From: an uncultured Alphaproteobacteria bacterium
Lineage (GTDB): Bacteria > Pseudomonadota > Alphaproteobacteria > Rs-D84
Assembly: GCA_905234185.1 (NCBI GenBank)
Contig: CAJOGC010000002.1
Coordinates: 103,949-167,948, forward strand
Length of the DNA stretch: 64,000 nt
Direction of reading: 5' to 3'
A program made the translations under genes and the position numbers. Positions 17,437-40,010 of this stretch are shown in pieces. Below the pieces are notes generated by a model that was not told the origin of the DNA, ran no database searches, and saw only the letters and a list, made by a program, of their open reading frames with translations. Position 1 is the stretch's first letter. Each line of letters begins with the position of its first letter.

Positions 17437-17449
17437 ACAGATTGATTTA

Positions 17450-17483
17450 TCATTGCGAGGGAGCATAGCGACCGCGGCAATCC
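17450..17483. repeat. short palindromic repeat (CATTGCGA...CAATCC type)
   Basis: tCATTGCGAGGGAGCATAGCGACCGCGGCAATCC. A related unit lies at 24971..25002. Confidence 0.6.
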
Positions 17484-17489
17484 ATAAAA

Positions 17490-17616
17490 ACTACCCCGCC
17501 ACTTCGTGACACCCCTTCGCTCGCGAAGGGGATTTTACTTTCTGGAATCATAGCATAAATCCCCTTCACTGTGTGAAGGGGTGGATTGCGAACGTTAGTG
17601 AGAAAGACGGGGTAGT
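17490..17616 (+). repeat. PAL-A palindromic element, copy 1 (~127 bp)
   Basis: The terminal inverted repeats are CTACCCCG...CGGGGTAG. The internal hairpins are CCCCTTC..GAAGGGG x2 and a central CTGGAATCAT. Related copies lie at 25701..25835 and 27027..27100. Confidence 0.8.
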
Positions 17617-17618
17617 CC

Positions 17619-17686
17619 CCTGCCCCCTTGTGGGGCGGGATAGATTTATTTACGAACAAAGTGAGTTAATAAATCTTGGGTGGGGG
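17619..17686 (+). repeat. PAL-B element arm (CCTGCCCCC...CTTGGGTGGGGG)
   Basis: It has the same conserved ends as 39430..39501. It forms an inverted pair with 17707..17786 across a 20-nt spacer. Confidence 0.8.
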
Positions 17687-17706
17687 AATTATAGGCGTTC
17701 TGTTTG

Positions 17707-17786
17707 CCCCCACCCAAGAGTCGCTAGTTCACATACGTTCACAAGCCGACTCTGTCCCGCCCCGCACGCTTTGCGCGGGGGCAGGT
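17707..17786 (-). repeat. PAL-B element arm, inverted orientation
   Basis: CCCCCACCCAAGAGTCGC...GACTCTGTCCCGCCCC...GCGCGGGGGCAGG. Its reverse complement aligns along nearly its whole length with 39430..39501. It abuts the pyrG stop codon. Confidence 0.8.
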
Positions 17787-17789
17787 CAA

Positions 17790-19364
17790 TTAATGCTTGT
17801 GTTTCTTTGCTGCGGCGATGAATGCGTTAAACATCGGGTGGCCGGTGTATGGGCTGCTTTGGAACTCTGGATGGAATTGTCCGGCAATAAAGAACGGATG
17901 GTTTTTCAATTCCACTATTTCCGGCAGGCGTCCGTCGGGACTGCGTCCCGAAATTATCATGCCCGCGTCCGCGAATTGCTTTTCGTATTCTATATTCATC
18001 TCGTACCGATGACGGTGCCGTTCCGAAATATGTTCCGCGCCCCAAATACTGTGCGCCAGTGTCCCCGGCGTAATGTCGCACGGATACGCGCCCAATCGCA
18101 ATGTTCCCCCCATATTTTTCGAATCGTGATCTGCCATAATGCCAATCACTGGGGTGCAATTCTTGTTAAACTCGGTCGAATCGGCATCCGCAATGCCCAA
18201 AACATTACGCGCAAATTCAATGACGGCAACCTGCATCCCCAGGCATATACCCATATATGGCACGCCGTTTTCACGCGCATAACCCGCCGCGGCAATTTTA
18301 CCCGCGACCCCGCGCGAACCGAACCCGCCGGGCACCAAGATTCCGTCAACATCGCTACACGTTTCCGGTGTGAATTCTTCGGCATTTATCTTTTTAATCT
18401 TTACATGCACATTGTTTTGGATGCCGGCGTGAAACAGTGCCTCGTTCAGCGATTTATACGCATCCGGCACATGAAAGTATTTTCCCACCATGCCGATTGT
18501 GACCGTCGGCAAATCCGCATCCAGGTAATGTTCAATCCGCCGAAACCTGTCCATATTGCCCGCGGCGTTTGGCAAACCAAAATGGTCGGCAATTATATCA
18601 AAGACATGTTGTGCGTCATATGCCAATGGAATCTTGTAAATATTATCAACATCAATGCCACTAATTACATTCTGCGCCGGCAAATTACAGAACATACCGA
18701 TTTTTGCGCGTTCATCCGGTTCCAACATGCGCGGTGTTCGCACGATTAGCATATCTGCCTGAATCCCGTTTTCAAGTAAGTTCCGCACCGACATTTGTGT
18801 TGGTTTTGTCTTTAATTCGCCACTTTTTTCCAAATATGGTGCCAATGTTAAATGAATAAACATAACATTGCGGCGACCAACATCGTTCGCAAATTGACGG
18901 ATTGATTCCAAAAATATCTTGCCCTCGATATCGCCCACCGTTCCGCCGATTTCACAGACAACGAAATCAGTATCGGTTGGTGCGGAAATATATTCTTTTA
19001 TCTTATTACTGACGTGCGGAATCATTTGCACTGTCGCGCCCAGATAATCGCCGCGTCGTTCCGCATTTAGAACATCCCAATATATGCGCCCACCAGACAC
19101 AGAATCGGCGCGACCCAATTTTGCACCCAAAAACCGTTCGTAATATCCCAGATCCAAGTCCGTTTCAAAACCGTCGTTTGTCACATAAACCTCGCCATGC
19201 TGAAACGGGGACATTGTGCCCGGGTCTATATTCAAATAAGGGTCAAATTTTCGCGCATGAACGGTATATCCGCGCGATTGTAAAAGGGCGCCACAACTTG
19301 CCGCCGCGACGCCCTTGCCTAAACTGGAAACCACACCACCGGTAATGAATATATATTTCGCCAT
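17790..19364 (-). CDS. pyrG: CTP synthase
   Basis: MAKYIFITGGVVSSLGKG and a C-terminal glutamine amidotransferase domain (GICLGMQ, HRHRYE) are present. Confidence 0.95.
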   Translation of the reverse strand: MAKYIFITGGVVSSLGKGVAAASCGALLQSRGYTVHARKFDPYLNIDPGTMSPFQHGEVYVTNDGFETDLDLGYYERFLGAKLGRADSVSGGRIYWDVLNAERRGDYLGATVQMIPHVSNKIKEYISAPTDTDFVVCEIGGTVGDIEGKIFLESIRQFANDVGRRNVMFIHLTLAPYLEKSGELKTKPTQMSVRNLLENGIQADMLIVRTPRMLEPDERAKIGMFCNLPAQNVISGIDVDNIYKIPLAYDAQHVFDIIADHFGLPNAAGNMDRFRRIEHYLDADLPTVTIGMVGKYFHVPDAYKSLNEALFHAGIQNNVHVKIKKINAEEFTPETCSDVDGILVPGGFGSRGVAGKIAAAGYARENGVPYMGICLGMQVAVIEFARNVLGIADADSTEFNKNCTPVIGIMADHDSKNMGGTLRLGAYPCDITPGTLAHSIWGAEHISERHRHRYEMNIEYEKQFADAGMIISGRSPDGRLPEIVELKNHPFFIAGQFHPEFQSSPYTGHPMFNAFIAAAKKHKH

Positions 19365-24863: not shown

Positions 24864-24871
24864 CCGCAATG

Positions 24872-25002
24872 TCATCCCCGCGCAGGCGGGGATCCACTGC
24901 GCCGCAGGCACTATAAATTTGTCACTGCGCGGCAATGGATACCGGCCTTCGCCGGTATGACCCAAAGAGTGGATTGTCATTGCGAACAATGCGAAACAAT
25001 CC
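24872..25002. repeat. cluster of short palindromic repeats
   Basis: Three hairpin units are present: GTCATCCCCGCGCAGGCGGGGATCC, ATACCGGCCTTCGCCGGTAT and GGATTGTCATTGCGAACAATGCGAAACAATCC. They are related to units at 17450 and 27105. Confidence 0.7.
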
Positions 25003-25621: not shown

Positions 25622-25700
25622 TTCGTGCTCCTTTACTTCTACGATTATAACAATATTTCGCACAACAGCAAATCTAAAAAACACCGACGCCCGCCGTCAC

Positions 25701-25835
25701 CACTACCCCGCCTCGTTCCACTCGGCACCCTTTCACTGGAGTGAAGGGGAATTAAATTATCTGGAATCATATACCAGGTAATAAAAAATCCCCTTCATTG
25801 TATGAAGGGGTGGACGCGTAGCGGACGGGGTAGTG
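25701..25835 (+). repeat. PAL-A palindromic element, copy 2
   Basis: CACTACCCCG...CGGGGTAGTG termini with internal CCCTTTCACTGGAGTGAAGGGG and CCCCTTCATTGTATGAAGGGG hairpins. Confidence 0.8.
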
Positions 25836-26765: not shown

Positions 26766-26982
26766 CAAAAAATAACCGTCAATCTGTGGACTGACGGTCG
26801 GGGTGTTCGAAAATCATATACAACAATGACCCTGTGATTTTTACACCACAGCACCCCGACCTTTTATATCGGGGTTTGGTAACGACACAAATGCGTATGA
26901 TTTCTTAAGCGATTACGGACGCACTTGCACCGGTTGTATATGGGCTTTCGACGGCCCCGAACCTGTGCCACCACAGATTCAT
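26766..26982 (-). ncRNA. candidate structured leader/attenuator RNA, copy B (unclassified)
   Basis: It lies downstream of a TTGCAT-18-TATAAT promoter. It ends in CCGTCA-gtccacagat-TGACGG + TTATTTTTT immediately 5' of the 25884 gene. Its blocks are conserved and its helices covary with copy A. Confidence 0.55.
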
Positions 26983-26987
26983 TTCTT

Positions 26988-27017
26988 ATTATAAAACATT
27001 TGGTATATTTTATGCAA
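26988..27017 (-). promoter_or_regulatory. sigma70-like promoter of leader RNA B
   Basis: On the minus strand: TTGCAT (27017..27012), an 18-nt spacer, then TATAAT (26993..26988). The 18 nt from the -10 box onward (TATAATAAGAAATGAATC) are identical to copy A. Confidence 0.6.
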
Positions 27018-27026
27018 TATTAAAAA

Positions 27027-27100
27027 CACTACCCCGTCACTTCGTGACACCCCTTCGCACGGCAAAGGGGATTTTTAGTATCTGGAATATGATTCCATAG
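27027..27100 (+). repeat. PAL-A element, truncated copy 3 (left half)
   Basis: CACTACCCCGTCACTTCGTGACACCCCTTCGCACGGCAAAGGGGATTTTTAGTATCTGGAAT... matches the left half of copies 1 and 2. Confidence 0.7.
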
Positions 27101-27104
27101 AACT

Positions 27105-27129
27105 GTCATCCCTGCGATGGATGGGAATT
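27105..27129. repeat. short palindromic repeat (GTCATCCC...GGGAAT type)
   Basis: GTCATCCCTGCGATGGATGGGAATT, related to 24872..24896. Confidence 0.6.
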
Positions 27130-27130
27130 A

Positions 27131-33274: not shown

Positions 33275-33302
33275 TTGCAAAACGAACAAAGAATATTATA
33301 AT
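33275..33302 (+). promoter_or_regulatory. sigma70-like promoter upstream of the tRNA-Gln unit
   Basis: TTGCAA (33275..33280), a 16-nt spacer, then TATAAT (33297..33302). It lies 13 nt upstream of the 11-nt tRNA 5' fragment, not of the intact tRNA. Confidence 0.55.
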
Positions 33303-33314
33303 TTGCAATACCTT

Positions 33315-33400
33315 TGGGGTGTCGTTCCGTTTCCTCGGCTAACGCCTCGCCCGGAATGACAACGACTATGTCATGTGGATATAGTTCGTTCCAAGTTCAC
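33315..33400 (+). repeat. copy of tRNA-Gln nt 1-11 followed by PAL-C palindromic element
   Basis: TGGGGTGTCGT is identical to the first 11 nt of the tRNA. It is followed by TCCGTTTCCTCGGCTAACGCCTCGCCCGGAATGACAACGAC and 34 nt of spacer. Confidence 0.75.
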
Positions 33401-33474
33401 TGGGGTGTCGTCTAATGGTAGGACAAGAGATTTTGGTTCTCTTTATCATGGTTCGAATCCGTGCGCCCCAACCA
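33401..33474 (+). tRNA. tRNA-Gln (anticodon TTG)
   Basis: Manual cloverleaf: acceptor TGGGGTG/CGCCCCA, D arm GTCT-AATGGTA-GGAC, anticodon arm AGAGA-TTTTGGT-TCTCT, T arm CATGG-TTCGAAT-CCGTG, and an encoded ACCA. Confidence 0.9.
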
Positions 33475-33697
33475 AAAATTCAACCGGCATTTTTGCCGGT
33501 TTAATTTTTGATCGCGCACGGATCGGTCAGAGTGCCAACGGCACGCATGACCAATACGAGAATACACAATTAGAAAAATCTTAAAAAATCGACGGATGGA
33601 GATTTTTTTGATTTTGATTATTGCGTATCGAGGCAGCGGCGCCCCAACCAAAAATTAAAACCGCCCATCTGGGCGGTTTATTTTATTGTGTCGACAA

Positions 33698-34329: not shown

Positions 34330-34358
34330 TTGCAACCAGTAATAATTATGTCTAGAAT
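34330..34358 (+). promoter_or_regulatory. sigma70-like promoter upstream of the tRNA-Glu unit
   Basis: TTGCAA (34330..34335), a 17-nt spacer, then TAGAAT (34353..34358). The first 11-nt tRNA fragment begins 11 nt downstream. Confidence 0.55.
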
Positions 34359-34368
34359 ATTGCCACAC

Positions 34369-34498
34369 GGTCCCATCGTTCCGTTCCCTCGCTCCGCTCG
34401 CCCGGAATGACAACGACGACGGGACGATAGACGGTCCCATCGTTCCGTTCCCTCGCTCCGCTCGCCCGGAATGACAACGACGACGGGACGACATAGAC
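34369..34498 (+). repeat. tandem 64/66-bp units: tRNA-Glu nt 1-11 + PAL-C palindromic element, x2
   Basis: Each unit is GGTCCCATCGT + TCCGTTCCCTCGCTCCGCTCGCCCGGAATGACAACGACGACGGGACG(A/ACA)TAGAC, at 34369..34432 and 34433..34498. The intact tRNA follows directly. Confidence 0.85.
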
Positions 34499-34573
34499 GG
34501 TCCCATCGTCTAGCGGTTAGGACATCGGATTCTCATTCCGGTAACATGGGTTCGATTCCCATTGGGACTGCCA
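34499..34573 (+). tRNA. tRNA-Glu (anticodon CTC)
   Basis: Manual cloverleaf: acceptor GGTCCCA/TGGGACT (G1-U72 wobble), D arm GTCT-AGCGGTTA-GGAC, anticodon arm TCGGA-TTCTCAT-TCCGG, T arm ATGGG-TTCGATT-CCCAT, and an encoded GCCA. Confidence 0.9.
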
Positions 34574-39429: not shown

Positions 39430-39501
39430 CCTGCCCCCATTTTGTGGGGCGGGACAGAGTCGGCTTATGAACGCAGTGAATTAGCGACTCTTGGGTGGGG
39501 G
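39430..39501 (+). repeat. PAL-B element arm flanking the DUF559 gene (left)
   Basis: CCTGCCCCCATTTTGTGGGGCGGGACAGAGTCGGCTTATGAACGCAGTGAATTAGCGACTCTTGGGTGGGGG. It ends 2 nt before the DUF559 stop codon. Confidence 0.8.
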
Positions 39502-39503
39502 CA

Positions 39504-39890
39504 TTATTTTCCCCATCGCGACACAAAAAATTCATTAAAATCCAAATGTTCGTTTATACACATGTGCAATGTATCAACAACCGTTTTCATACCTTGTTTC
39601 GTTAATTCTGCATTTGCAACACGAATAACTTTATAGCCCTGTGATTCTATAAACTCTGTGCGCTTGTTGTCGTATTCAATATTTTCTGCGTGTTGGTTGC
39701 CATCAAGTTCAATAACCAATTTCAATTCATTACACACAAAATCAACATAATATGGACCAAACGGTTGTTGCCGGCGGAACTTTACCCCCAGTTTGTTATT
39801 ATTAATTTGATACCAGAATTTGCGTTCTGGGTCAGACATATTTTTACGCAGGTTTTTTGCACGAATAATGTTTGCTGGGTGATTTGTCAT
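39504..39890 (-). CDS. DUF559 (Vsr-like PD-(D/E)XK) endonuclease-domain protein
   Basis: AKNLRKNMSDPERKFWYQI...KFRRQQPFGPYYVDFVCNELKLVIELDGNQH...YDNKRTEFIESQGYKVIRV is the typical DUF559 sequence. Confidence 0.8.
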   Translation of the reverse strand: MTNHPANIIRAKNLRKNMSDPERKFWYQINNNKLGVKFRRQQPFGPYYVDFVCNELKLVIELDGNQHAENIEYDNKRTEFIESQGYKVIRVANAELTKQGMKTVVDTLHMCINEHLDFNEFFVSRWGK

Positions 39891-39902
39891 AATACAATTT
39901 TA

Positions 39903-39985
39903 CCCCCACCCAAGATTTTCATCAACATTAAAAATGTTGTGAAAATCTGTCCCGCCCCACACGCACAATGTGCGCGGGGGCAGGT
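39903..39985 (-). repeat. PAL-B element arm flanking the DUF559 gene (right, inverted)
   Basis: CCCCCACCCAAGATTTTCATCAACATTAAAAATGTTGTGAAAATCTGTCCCGCCCCACACGCACAATGTGCGCGGGGGCAGG. It starts 12 nt upstream of the DUF559 ATG. On the minus strand it supplies TTGATG-17-TAAAAT. Confidence 0.8.
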
Positions 39986-40010
39986 GAAAAATGCACCAAA
40001 CGGCGCATTT

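Follow-up and report, generated by a model that had tools for sequence, protein, structure and literature searches.

The genes for tRNA-Gln(UUG) and tRNA-Glu(CUC) lie in a 64,000 nt stretch of DNA from an uncultured Alphaproteobacteria bacterium (contig CAJOGC010000002.1, positions 103,949 to 167,948; hereafter the window, to which all coordinates refer), and both are preceded by small hairpin units that start with a copy of the first 11 nt of the adjacent tRNA gene. The intact tRNA-Gln gene (33401-33474, + strand; CCA encoded) was recognised by ARAGORN and by Rfam (57.7 bits). Upstream of it is a sigma-70-like promoter, TTGCAA-16-TATAAT (33275-33302, +; 10/12 match), which is followed after 12 nt by an 11 nt stub, TGGGGTGTCGT (33315-33325, +), a direct copy of tRNA-Gln nt 1-11 that is 100% identical to 33401-33411. 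The stub adjoins the 41 nt hairpin core of the unit, PAL-C (33326-33366, +), the antisense strand of which reads GTCGTTGTCATTCCGG...CGGAAC and resembles the NTS hairpins of Neisseria discussed below. The last 14 nt of the core, GGAATGACAACGAC (33353-33366, +), recur in all other units. Between the core and the tRNA is a 34 nt tail (33367-33400, +) with a small second hairpin and a second TCGTTCC (33386-33392, +). The duplication is exactly 11 nt at this gene, and the unit has no inverted copy of tRNA-Gln. A 10 bp stem (TGTCGTTCCG/CGGAATGACA) is predicted in the leader, which folds better than shuffled sequences (z = -3.1). A promoter-like site within the unit, ATGACA-18-TATAGT (33356-33385, +), has its -10-like TATAGT in the tail; in the related locus L010 (see below) this -10 reads TATGGT, and the internal site was dropped as the main route of expression.

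The tRNA-Glu gene (34499-34573, +; CCA encoded; ARAGORN and Rfam, 61.7 bits) is preceded by two units in tandem, with a promoter-like site, TTGCAA-17-TAGAAT (34330-34358, +), 10 nt 5′ of the first stub. Unit 1 (34369-34432, +) begins with the stub GGTCCCATCGT (34369-34379, +), which repeats tRNA-Glu nt 1-11; then come the core (34380-34417, +), tRNA-Glu nt 1-12 in inverted orientation (GACGACGGGAC; 34415-34425, 10/11 matching) and the spacer GATAGAC. Unit 2 (34433-34498, +) is the same except for its spacer, GACATAGAC; the spacers of the Glu units are 7-9 nt in length. The region can also be described as a tandem pair of identical 61 nt copies (34367-34427 and 34431-34491), each with GGTCCCATCGT. 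An inverted copy is present in both units, so that the 11-mer forms the left arm of a long palindrome at tRNA-Glu. The repeat extends past the +1 position of the gene: the AC at -2/-1 is repeated in the window, as are 3-4 nt in relatives. These nucleotides vary by lineage, and the length of the Glu duplication is 11 nt plus 0-4 further nt.

The Gln and Glu cores share CTCGCCCGGAATGACAACGAC, and the 19-mer CGCCCGGAATGACAACGAC occurs three times in the window, compared with 0.01 copies expected by chance. At both tRNAs the junction comes after TCGT, between nt 11 and 12, and both tRNAs read TCGTC at positions 8-12. Counting the relatives, units are 58-86 nt long, contain no open reading frame (ORF), and lengthen the leader to 70-135 nt. 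A preliminary description of this DNA had proposed the order of promoter, exact tRNA-Gln fragment, PAL-C with 34 nt, and intact tRNA (33315-33474 from the fragment onwards), as well as the shared breakpoint after TCGT, and all of this was found as described. It had also proposed the same architecture at tRNA-Glu, which holds for the use of that gene's own 11-mer and the same core and has to be amended for the second unit and the inverted tRNA copy. That the duplication starts exactly at +1 is correct for tRNA-Gln and incorrect for tRNA-Glu, given the repeated -2/-1 nucleotides.

The tRNA genes lie in a neighbourhood of about 43% G+C that contains an RND efflux operon and genes for MarR, a flavodoxin-like protein, MerR and GyrA. 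Syntenic loci (designated L with a number) were gathered by means of homologues of the flavodoxin, which come from alphaproteobacterial metagenome-assembled genomes (MAGs) of gut metagenomes, and were supplemented by loci from a single scan of metagenomes for a gapped pattern of the core. At tRNA-Glu, one or two copies of a unit with a long core are present in the window, L010, L049, L006, L039 and L050, and a unit with a short core is found in L052/L063 and L016. The site is empty in L011-13, L014-15, L055-56, L057-58, L059-60 and L061. At tRNA-Gln, the window and L010 are filled, L016 retains a remnant (TGGGGT and 17 nt, the latter similar to the end of the 34 nt Gln tail), and L014, L050, L052, L055 and L059 are empty; the sequence of tRNA-Gln itself does not differ among all the relatives. 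In these five empty Gln sites the promoter is followed by 12 nt and then by the tRNA +1, and in the empty Glu sites of L011, L055 and L057 the -10 is followed by 10 nt and then +1. In the filled sites these spacings are unchanged, but the 10 nt (Glu) or 12 nt (Gln) after the -10 lead to the stub. The unit and one copy of the repeat are therefore extra DNA, and the structure of the tRNA leaders is an insertion/deletion polymorphism relative to empty orthologous sites. Sites that lack the element and hold a single copy of the repeat, as looked for in miniature inverted-repeat transposable elements (MITEs), thus exist for both tRNAs.

The distribution of filled sites among relatives does not follow overall similarity. 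L010 is 96% identical to the window in flavodoxin and 100% in MerR, yet has one Glu unit instead of two. Conversely, the two 64 nt Glu units of L049 equal those of the window save for a 2 nt indel in the tRNA-proximal spacer, whereas elsewhere the two loci are divergent (flavodoxin 63-66%, coding DNA about 70% identical, tRNA 3′ flank unalignable); the nearer relatives L011, L055 and L057 (flavodoxin 76-78%) are empty at Glu. The tract of identity between the window and L049 ends at conserved promoter and tRNA sequence. L039 carries two tandem units with unlike cores (L039-A and L039-B), and the Gln core of the window is nearer to the variants of L039-B and L050 than to the core at tRNA-Glu in the same genome. 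The L049 match, the empty nearer relatives, the copy number in L010 and the cores of L039 together make vertical descent alone a poor fit. These comparisons argue for a hairpin module that has passed from genome to genome, and from one locus to another at least once, and that gains and loses copies, i.e., for spread over simple descent. Transfer of the type seen in L049 could reflect movement driven by the element, or replacement of alleles with the conserved promoter and tRNA as recombination arms.

In the sequences searched, the core is restricted to these two positions. Scanning the window with the 19-mer (up to 3 mismatches) and with a 13-mer (up to 2 mismatches) gave no copies beyond the known three. 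A scan of 185,579 GTDB species genomes for the core gave nine matches, of which eight were due to chance and came from unrelated genomes of high GC content. The one real match, a single copy, is at L006, a flavodoxin-tRNA-Glu locus in a Candidatus Enterousia MAG that is orthologous to the one in the window. Together with the gut origin of the flavodoxin homologues, this points to an Enterousia-like gut alphaproteobacterium as the source of the window. A scan of JGI metagenomes returned 31 loci, 27 by chance, and the four real ones (L039, L049, L050 and L052) all have the core 5′ of tRNA-Glu(CUC). In viral contigs, seven matches to the gapped core were all chance matches in coding DNA, and the ends of the GIY-YIG element described below gave one unrelated match (right-end motif) and none (left end). 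A phage origin of the units was rejected on these results, as was a dispersed PAL family. A reading of PAL-C as a multi-copy family fails: in the window, GTDB and JGI all of its copies lie at tRNA-Glu(CUC) or tRNA-Gln(UUG). Two observations that would have spoken against the insertion model of the preliminary description, PAL-C copies away from tRNA fragments and an 11-mer belonging to the element consensus, were not made: no tRNA-free copies were seen, and the Gln unit has the Gln 11-mer where the Glu units have the Glu 11-mer, and the 11-mer is therefore derived from the target. Inspection of tRNA 5′ flanks found exact 11 nt copies at Glu and Gln and at no other of the 42 tRNA gene calls compared, which span all the DNA analysed and count a locus again where it came from more than one assembly. 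Glu and Gln are also the sole tRNAs in this sample with TCGT at positions 8-11. The proposal of an element that inserts at a defined position in tRNA genes and regenerates their 5′ ends agrees with the empty sites (found at both tRNAs on comparing orthologous loci, with promoter spacing kept), the gene-specific 11-mers and the shared junction; the inverted copy at tRNA-Glu is not covered by it.

Read on the antisense strand, every unit has the form GTCGTT-GTCATTCC...GGAAC. The NTS of Neisseria, of which dRS3 is a shorter form, has the consensus CGTCATTCCCGCGMAVGCGGGAATCYRG (Chenal et al. 2025, PMC11893778). As described in the text of that study, hairpins of this type (Ssn-related motifs, SRM) are bound as single-stranded DNA (ssDNA) by SsnA, a stand-alone GIY-YIG nuclease of 94 aa that cuts a few nt 5′ of the hairpin and showed no RNA binding there; NTS repeats modulate transformation in Neisseria, and SRMs also occur in alphaproteobacteria, e.g., Wolbachia and Rhizorhabdus wittichii (PMC11893778). 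The oriented SRM layout, GTC and A/T followed by a palindrome and then C, is present in every unit (GTCATTCC within the invariant 14-mer, and GGAA followed by C). The 14-mer, GGAATGACAACGAC on the + strand, is unchanged in 8/8 distinct units, while loops, spacers and length vary. The short cores are the closest to NTS: on the antisense strand, GTCATTCCCGAGCAGGCGGGAAC (L016) and GTCATTCCCGCGCAGGCAGGAAC (L052) match 21/23 of NTS positions 2-24, and ten shuffled versions of the 64 kb window contained no NTS-core site at up to 5 mismatches. The long cores of the window have about 20 extra loop nt compared with NTS. In sequence, the core thus resembles the NTS/dRS3 hairpins (Ssn-related motifs), in an orientation antisense to the tRNA, and belongs to that class only in part.

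The window holds one strict match to the published SRM pattern, a canonical SRM at 24870-24897 (+), TGTCATCCCCGCGCAGGCGGGGATCCAC, and the lineage therefore possesses such motifs. It faces an NTS-like hairpin, GTCATACCGGCGAAGGCCGGTAT (24939-24961, -), and the pair lies between convergent genes; a further GTCATCCCTGCGATGGATGGGAAT is found near 27104. Other G+C-rich clusters of hairpin repeats (17440-17800, 25700-25830, 26980-27130, 39430-39510 and 39900-39990), with repeats such as CACCCCTTCGC..GCGAAGGGGAT, CCCGCCCCGCAC..GCGCGGGGGCAGG and TTGGGTGGGGG, are mosaic intergenic arrays unrelated to the tRNA units. A 128 aa ORF with a DUF559 domain (Vsr-like endonuclease fold; 39504-39890, -; Pfam E = 3e-34) is bracketed on both sides by hairpin repeats that also occur at 17600-17790, which recalls the NTS-ssnA-NTS layout.

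A small GIY-YIG gene is found beside a tRNA that carries a unit. In L052/L063, the tRNA-Glu of which has a unit in its leader, an ORF of 79 aa (4070-4309 in L063; Pfam PF01541, E = 1.7e-14) lies about 120 nt 3′ of the gene. Homologues are frequent in gut alphaproteobacterial MAGs (113 clusters), and the gene occurs directly 3′ of tRNA-Glu(CUC), tRNA-Lys(UUU) and tRNA-Ser(CGA), in the same orientation as the tRNA and in three unrelated contexts. UPF0213 and SLX1 are the nearest solved relatives of this candidate Ssn-like protein. In L068 (2792-3290; also L069-L071) it is the only gene of a cassette of about 390 bp, which starts after the CCA of tRNA-Ser and ends with ATTATTGTGTATCGAGG, 7 nt, and a 13 nt direct copy of the tRNA-Ser 3′ end. 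This cassette, with homologues in L065/L066 and L052/L063, looks like a minimal GIY-YIG element targeting tRNA 3′ ends. In L066 (60-110), the tRNA-Lys(UUU) beside the cassette has an aberrant 5′ end, GGGAACATAGC, after GGGGTCCAT, where L065 has GGGGCTATAGC; a hairpin lies 5′ of this tRNA, and its 5′ end is possibly rearranged.

In the window, a 164 nt insertion (33475-33638, +) directly follows tRNA-Gln and is absent in L014, where the second terminator adjoins the tRNA. Within it are a separate terminator (33482-33501, +), tRNA-Gln gene positions 57-66 in inverted orientation (GCGCACGGAT, 33514-33523) and a right-end motif, ATTATTGCGTATCGAGG (33617-33633, +), which also occurs in the GIY-YIG element that L068 carries at tRNA-Ser. 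Five nt after this motif, the final 12 nt of tRNA-Gln are repeated in direct orientation together with AAAATT (33639-33656, +), and the original tRNA-Gln terminator follows (33658-33679, +). Judged by these shared parts, the insertion is a derivative of the GIY-YIG mini-element. In L055 the 3′ units of tRNA-Gln are in tandem, and in L011 a 3′ unit and fragments are kept and the tRNA-Gln gene itself is lost. Copies of 3′ ends were seen at Gln, Glu, Lys and Ser among the tRNA gene calls. A second type of unit, of 100-200 nt, also occurs 3′ of tRNAs (L006, 5733-5850; L055, tRNA-Glu; L065, 2632-2870; L059, tRNA-Gln). Its order is GGTTCGA...CAAGTAGATTT...GAAATCGTYACGG...GCAGGCA...GCCRAGGGA, followed by a copy of the tRNA 3′ end that comprises 17-19 nt from the T loop to CCA in L006, L055 and L065 and is partial (GTGCGCCCCAA) in L059; in L006 and L055 an inverted copy of the T arm stands before it.

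Partial sequence links join the 5′ units to the GIY-YIG cassettes. The L039-A unit contains a 26 nt inverted copy (23/26) of the left end of the cassette (p < 0.003, local alignment against shuffled sequences), and the right end of unit 2 in the window, ACGACATAGACGG, has a match in the leader of the cassette, at its inner end (p of about 0.007). A homology between the left half of the long core and the left end of the element, suggested by eye, was not significant against shuffled sequences. Insertions at several tRNA ends indicate that the lineage has multiple small insertions that target tRNA ends and regenerate the gene, and this wider pattern makes the idea of insertion more credible in general terms.

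The reading favoured here, which is given about an even chance of being correct, is that a small non-coding DNA hairpin module has lodged within the first 11-12 nt of tRNA genes that have TCGTC at positions 8-12. The insertion duplicates tRNA nt 1-11, with 0-4 nt from upstream, and leaves an intact tRNA downstream and a dead 11 nt stub by the old promoter. At tRNA-Glu, the hairpin core is nested in a longer palindrome with the tRNA 5′ end and its complement as arms. Horizontal spread could occur by hairpin- or ssDNA-based insertion, or by recombination of alleles in which the conserved promoter and tRNA serve as arms, and recombination between the direct repeats of 11-15 nt would result in precise loss or changes in copy number. 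Formally, insertion within the tRNA between nt 11 and 12 and insertion of a copy plus hairpin just 5′ of +1 are one and the same description. The tRNA would be transcribed by read-through from the old promoter, because no equally good promoter lies in between, and RNase P would remove the leader of 70-135 nt; on the sequence, this route is plausible. In minimum-free-energy folds of the whole precursors (33312-33474 and 34366-34573) it is the stub, not the true 5′ end, that pairs with the 3′ strand of the acceptor. The 11 nt stub is thus a potential folding decoy, which at tRNA-Glu the inverted copy would sequester.

The likeliest catalyst would be a hairpin-specific ssDNA nuclease, a small GIY-YIG protein (candidate Ssn-like) acting with host repair, since such genes sit in the tRNA-3′-end insertions of this lineage. 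It is suggested tentatively, as an explanation that is on balance unlikely, that the units are the footprint of an undescribed kind of NTS-class hairpin movement, in which an Ssn-type cut is followed by repair that pastes the hairpin into tRNA genes with TCGTC and duplicates the tRNA end. The SsnA substrate can be read as 6 nt, the cut, 3 nt and the 28 nt NTS (37 nt in total), a putative offset (PMC11893778). If SsnA cuts 3 nt 5′ of the 28 nt NTS, then on the antisense strand, GGTCCCATCGT^CGT followed by TGTCATTCC (^ marking the cut), the cut would coincide with the junction between nt 11 and 12. Attempts to find a cut-and-repair scheme that yields the complete order of direct copy, hairpin, inverted copy and direct copy derived none.

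A number of observations weigh against the insertion of a mobile NTS-type module. The inverted tRNA copy at Glu is not accounted for by simple insertion or by a staggered-cut duplication, and the inconstant Glu duplication (11 nt plus 0-4) is unlike the product of a transposase with a fixed stagger. No master or dispersed copies appeared in the scans, and ordinary MITE-like transposition is not demonstrated; the targets known are two loci, for which one inter-locus event strictly suffices, and near-identical units in divergent genomes could stem from allele transfer by homologous recombination, not from mobility of the element. The units of the window itself match NTS only in GTCATTCC and GGAAC, with 8-10 mismatches in 23 positions when aligned without gaps. 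None of the eight units (0/8) matches the published SRM pattern, HGTCWYN(0-2)YYVSBRHN(0-5)WNVSBRGN(0-2)RNCYNB, on either strand, mainly because the 3′ flank of NTS is replaced by tRNA-derived sequence, and strict SRM membership was abandoned on this pattern. No GIY-YIG gene was found in the 64 kb window by tblastn or motif search. In the predicted fold of the Glu unit the stub pairs with the inverted copy, and its stability relative to shuffled sequences (z = -1.1) is not exceptional.

The inverted copy is the starting point of a different explanation, local rearrangement, which is thought rather unlikely. It supposes a fold-back or replication template switch of the quasipalindrome type at the 5′ end of tRNA-Glu that gave a direct-inverted-direct triplication around a pre-existing hairpin, followed by spread of the allele between species through homologous recombination, with the conserved promoter and tRNA as arms, and by a single copying, through template switching at the TCGT microhomology, from the Glu leader to tRNA-Gln 1.1 kb away. 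The order at Glu (direct copy, hairpin, inverted copy, tRNA), with arms that end at the end of the tRNA, is what such an event would leave, and the repetition of lineage-specific nucleotides just 5′ of +1 fits as well. So do the identity tract shared with L049, bounded by conserved promoter and tRNA, the lack of core copies elsewhere in the scans, and the comparable inverted and direct pieces of tRNA found 3′ of tRNAs. However, the copy at tRNA-Gln, a clean 11 nt duplication with no inverted Gln copy, requires several template switches, and its core is closest to the L039-B and L050 variants rather than to the resident Glu core. Nor does rearrangement readily explain the two unlike cores in tandem in L039, or a 14-mer that is invariant across lineages with otherwise unalignable intergenic DNA. 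This last feature, together with the well-kept arms, would be expected of a selected functional leader, serving in the control of tRNA maturation, as the source of a small RNA, or as an Ssn-type binding site that limits replacement of tRNA genes by transforming DNA. The stability of the Gln leader (z = -3.1) and the predicted pairing of the upstream copy with the acceptor 3′ strand, where it could compete unless sequestered, also favour selection, and the effect of NTS repeats on Neisseria transformation (PMC11893778) suits the third version. A functional leader is nevertheless judged improbable. The unit is absent at Glu in at least six lineages and at Gln in most, copy number differs between genomes that are near-identical at the locus, and loops, spacers and length are free to vary. 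Differences in the arms are uncompensated single mismatches (A.C, C.A, U.G); a formal count of covariation was dropped, given invariant stems in the long cores and a faulty MAFFT alignment of the units with short cores. Searches of Rfam, at gathering thresholds or E ≤ 1, gave nothing beyond the tRNAs, which counts against a leader RNA, as does the report that SsnA did not bind RNA (PMC11893778).

Direct repeats of tRNA sequence around foreign DNA are the hallmark of islands that integrate into tRNA genes, and 3′-end repeats are common in this lineage. It could therefore be supposed that each unit is the scar (an attL/attR remnant) of an island that entered the 5′ part of a tRNA and was later nearly all deleted, and this is held to be very improbable. 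No integrase was seen at any of the loci, the unit is 58-86 nt and has no ORF, and one and the same tiny unit turns up in divergent genomes as well as in tandem. The repeat consists of tRNA nt 1-11, i.e., the 5′ end instead of the 3′ half, and to our knowledge integrases do not target the 5′ ends of tRNAs.

The hairpin module is comparable with several known systems, each in part. Genomic islands, phages and cis-mobilisable elements that integrate at tRNA genes through tyrosine-integrase att sites are known to use the 3′ half (anticodon loop, T loop or 3′ end), and they either carry an integrase gene or require an integrase. The units are like them in having a tRNA gene as target that is kept intact by a duplicated piece, and in their tandem accretion at one tRNA, but lie at the 5′ end between nt 11 and 12, are 58-86 nt, carry no gene, and have the promoter 5′ of the stub. 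Rickettsia palindromic elements and bacterial MITEs are multi-copy, dispersed families. Like these, the units are small, non-coding, palindromic insertions in a host-associated alphaproteobacterial lineage that are tolerated in transcribed genes (those elements in genes for RNA or protein) and, as for some of these elements, show filled and empty sites. In contrast, they occur at two tRNA genes only, with a duplication of at least 11 nt anchored at the tRNA start; dispersed copies and an autonomous element with matching ends, as in MITE families, were not found beyond the partial links to the GIY-YIG element. Intergenic mosaic elements of Neisseria are arrays of dRS3 hairpins with variable segments between them. 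These, and the REP (repetitive extragenic palindromic) sequences and bacterial interspersed mosaic elements (BIMEs) with their REP-associated tyrosine transposase (RAYT), share with the units tandem hairpins of variable copy number and exchangeable inner segments, here exemplified by the piece of GIY-element end in L039-A. At the units, by contrast, the adjacent tRNA gene supplies, with its 5′ end, the repeat that separates the hairpins, and an intact tRNA always closes the array; neither a RAYT gene nor a GTAG motif of the REP type was seen there.

The closest counterpart is the NTS/dRS3/SRM class, which is likewise intergenic and has the same oriented hairpin, with GTCA as its 5′ flank and a C after the TTCC(C)...(G)GGAA palindrome; the small GIY-YIG gene beside the same tRNA in L052/L063 is a possible further point of likeness. 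They differ in number, with 1-3 units per sampled genome compared with hundreds for NTS (many intergenic copies per genome are typical of SRMs, and here the core stands at only two tRNAs in 64 kb), and in that the units are always flanked by duplicated tRNA 5′ sequence. The word 'tRNA' does not occur in the main text of the NTS study, and neither target duplication nor an association with tRNA was found in the passages searched (PMC11893778). The discussion there leaves as an open question how NTS/dRS3 hairpins multiply and whether GIY-YIG partners have a mobile-element role (PMC11893778). The NTS/dRS3/SRM hairpin class is already known, as are tRNA genes as insertion targets in general. The literature searched contained no tRNA-linked hairpin insertions or tRNA-targeting GIY-YIG cassettes, no NTS-like hairpin between tRNA nt 11 and 12 with duplication of the tRNA 5′ end, and neither palindromic incorporation of tRNA ends nor its co-occurrence with GIY-YIG cassettes at tRNA 3′ ends.

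An NTS-like hairpin with before and after sites, an anchored target duplication and variation in copy number provides a natural example of how such hairpins may be acquired, and the chemistry of insertion would be directly testable with a few oligonucleotides and one 79 aa protein. For the tRNA genes, these loci suggest that the 5′ end, besides the 3′ half, can be a tolerated landing site in bacteria, with an insertion that extends the leader from a few nt to 70-135 nt and adds a predicted decoy for the acceptor strand. If movement driven by an Ssn-type nuclease is the true explanation, the units and the GIY-YIG cassettes of about 390 bp would together constitute a family of mini-elements that target tRNA ends, and would be the first evidence that an 'NTS-ssnA-NTS' module is mobile.

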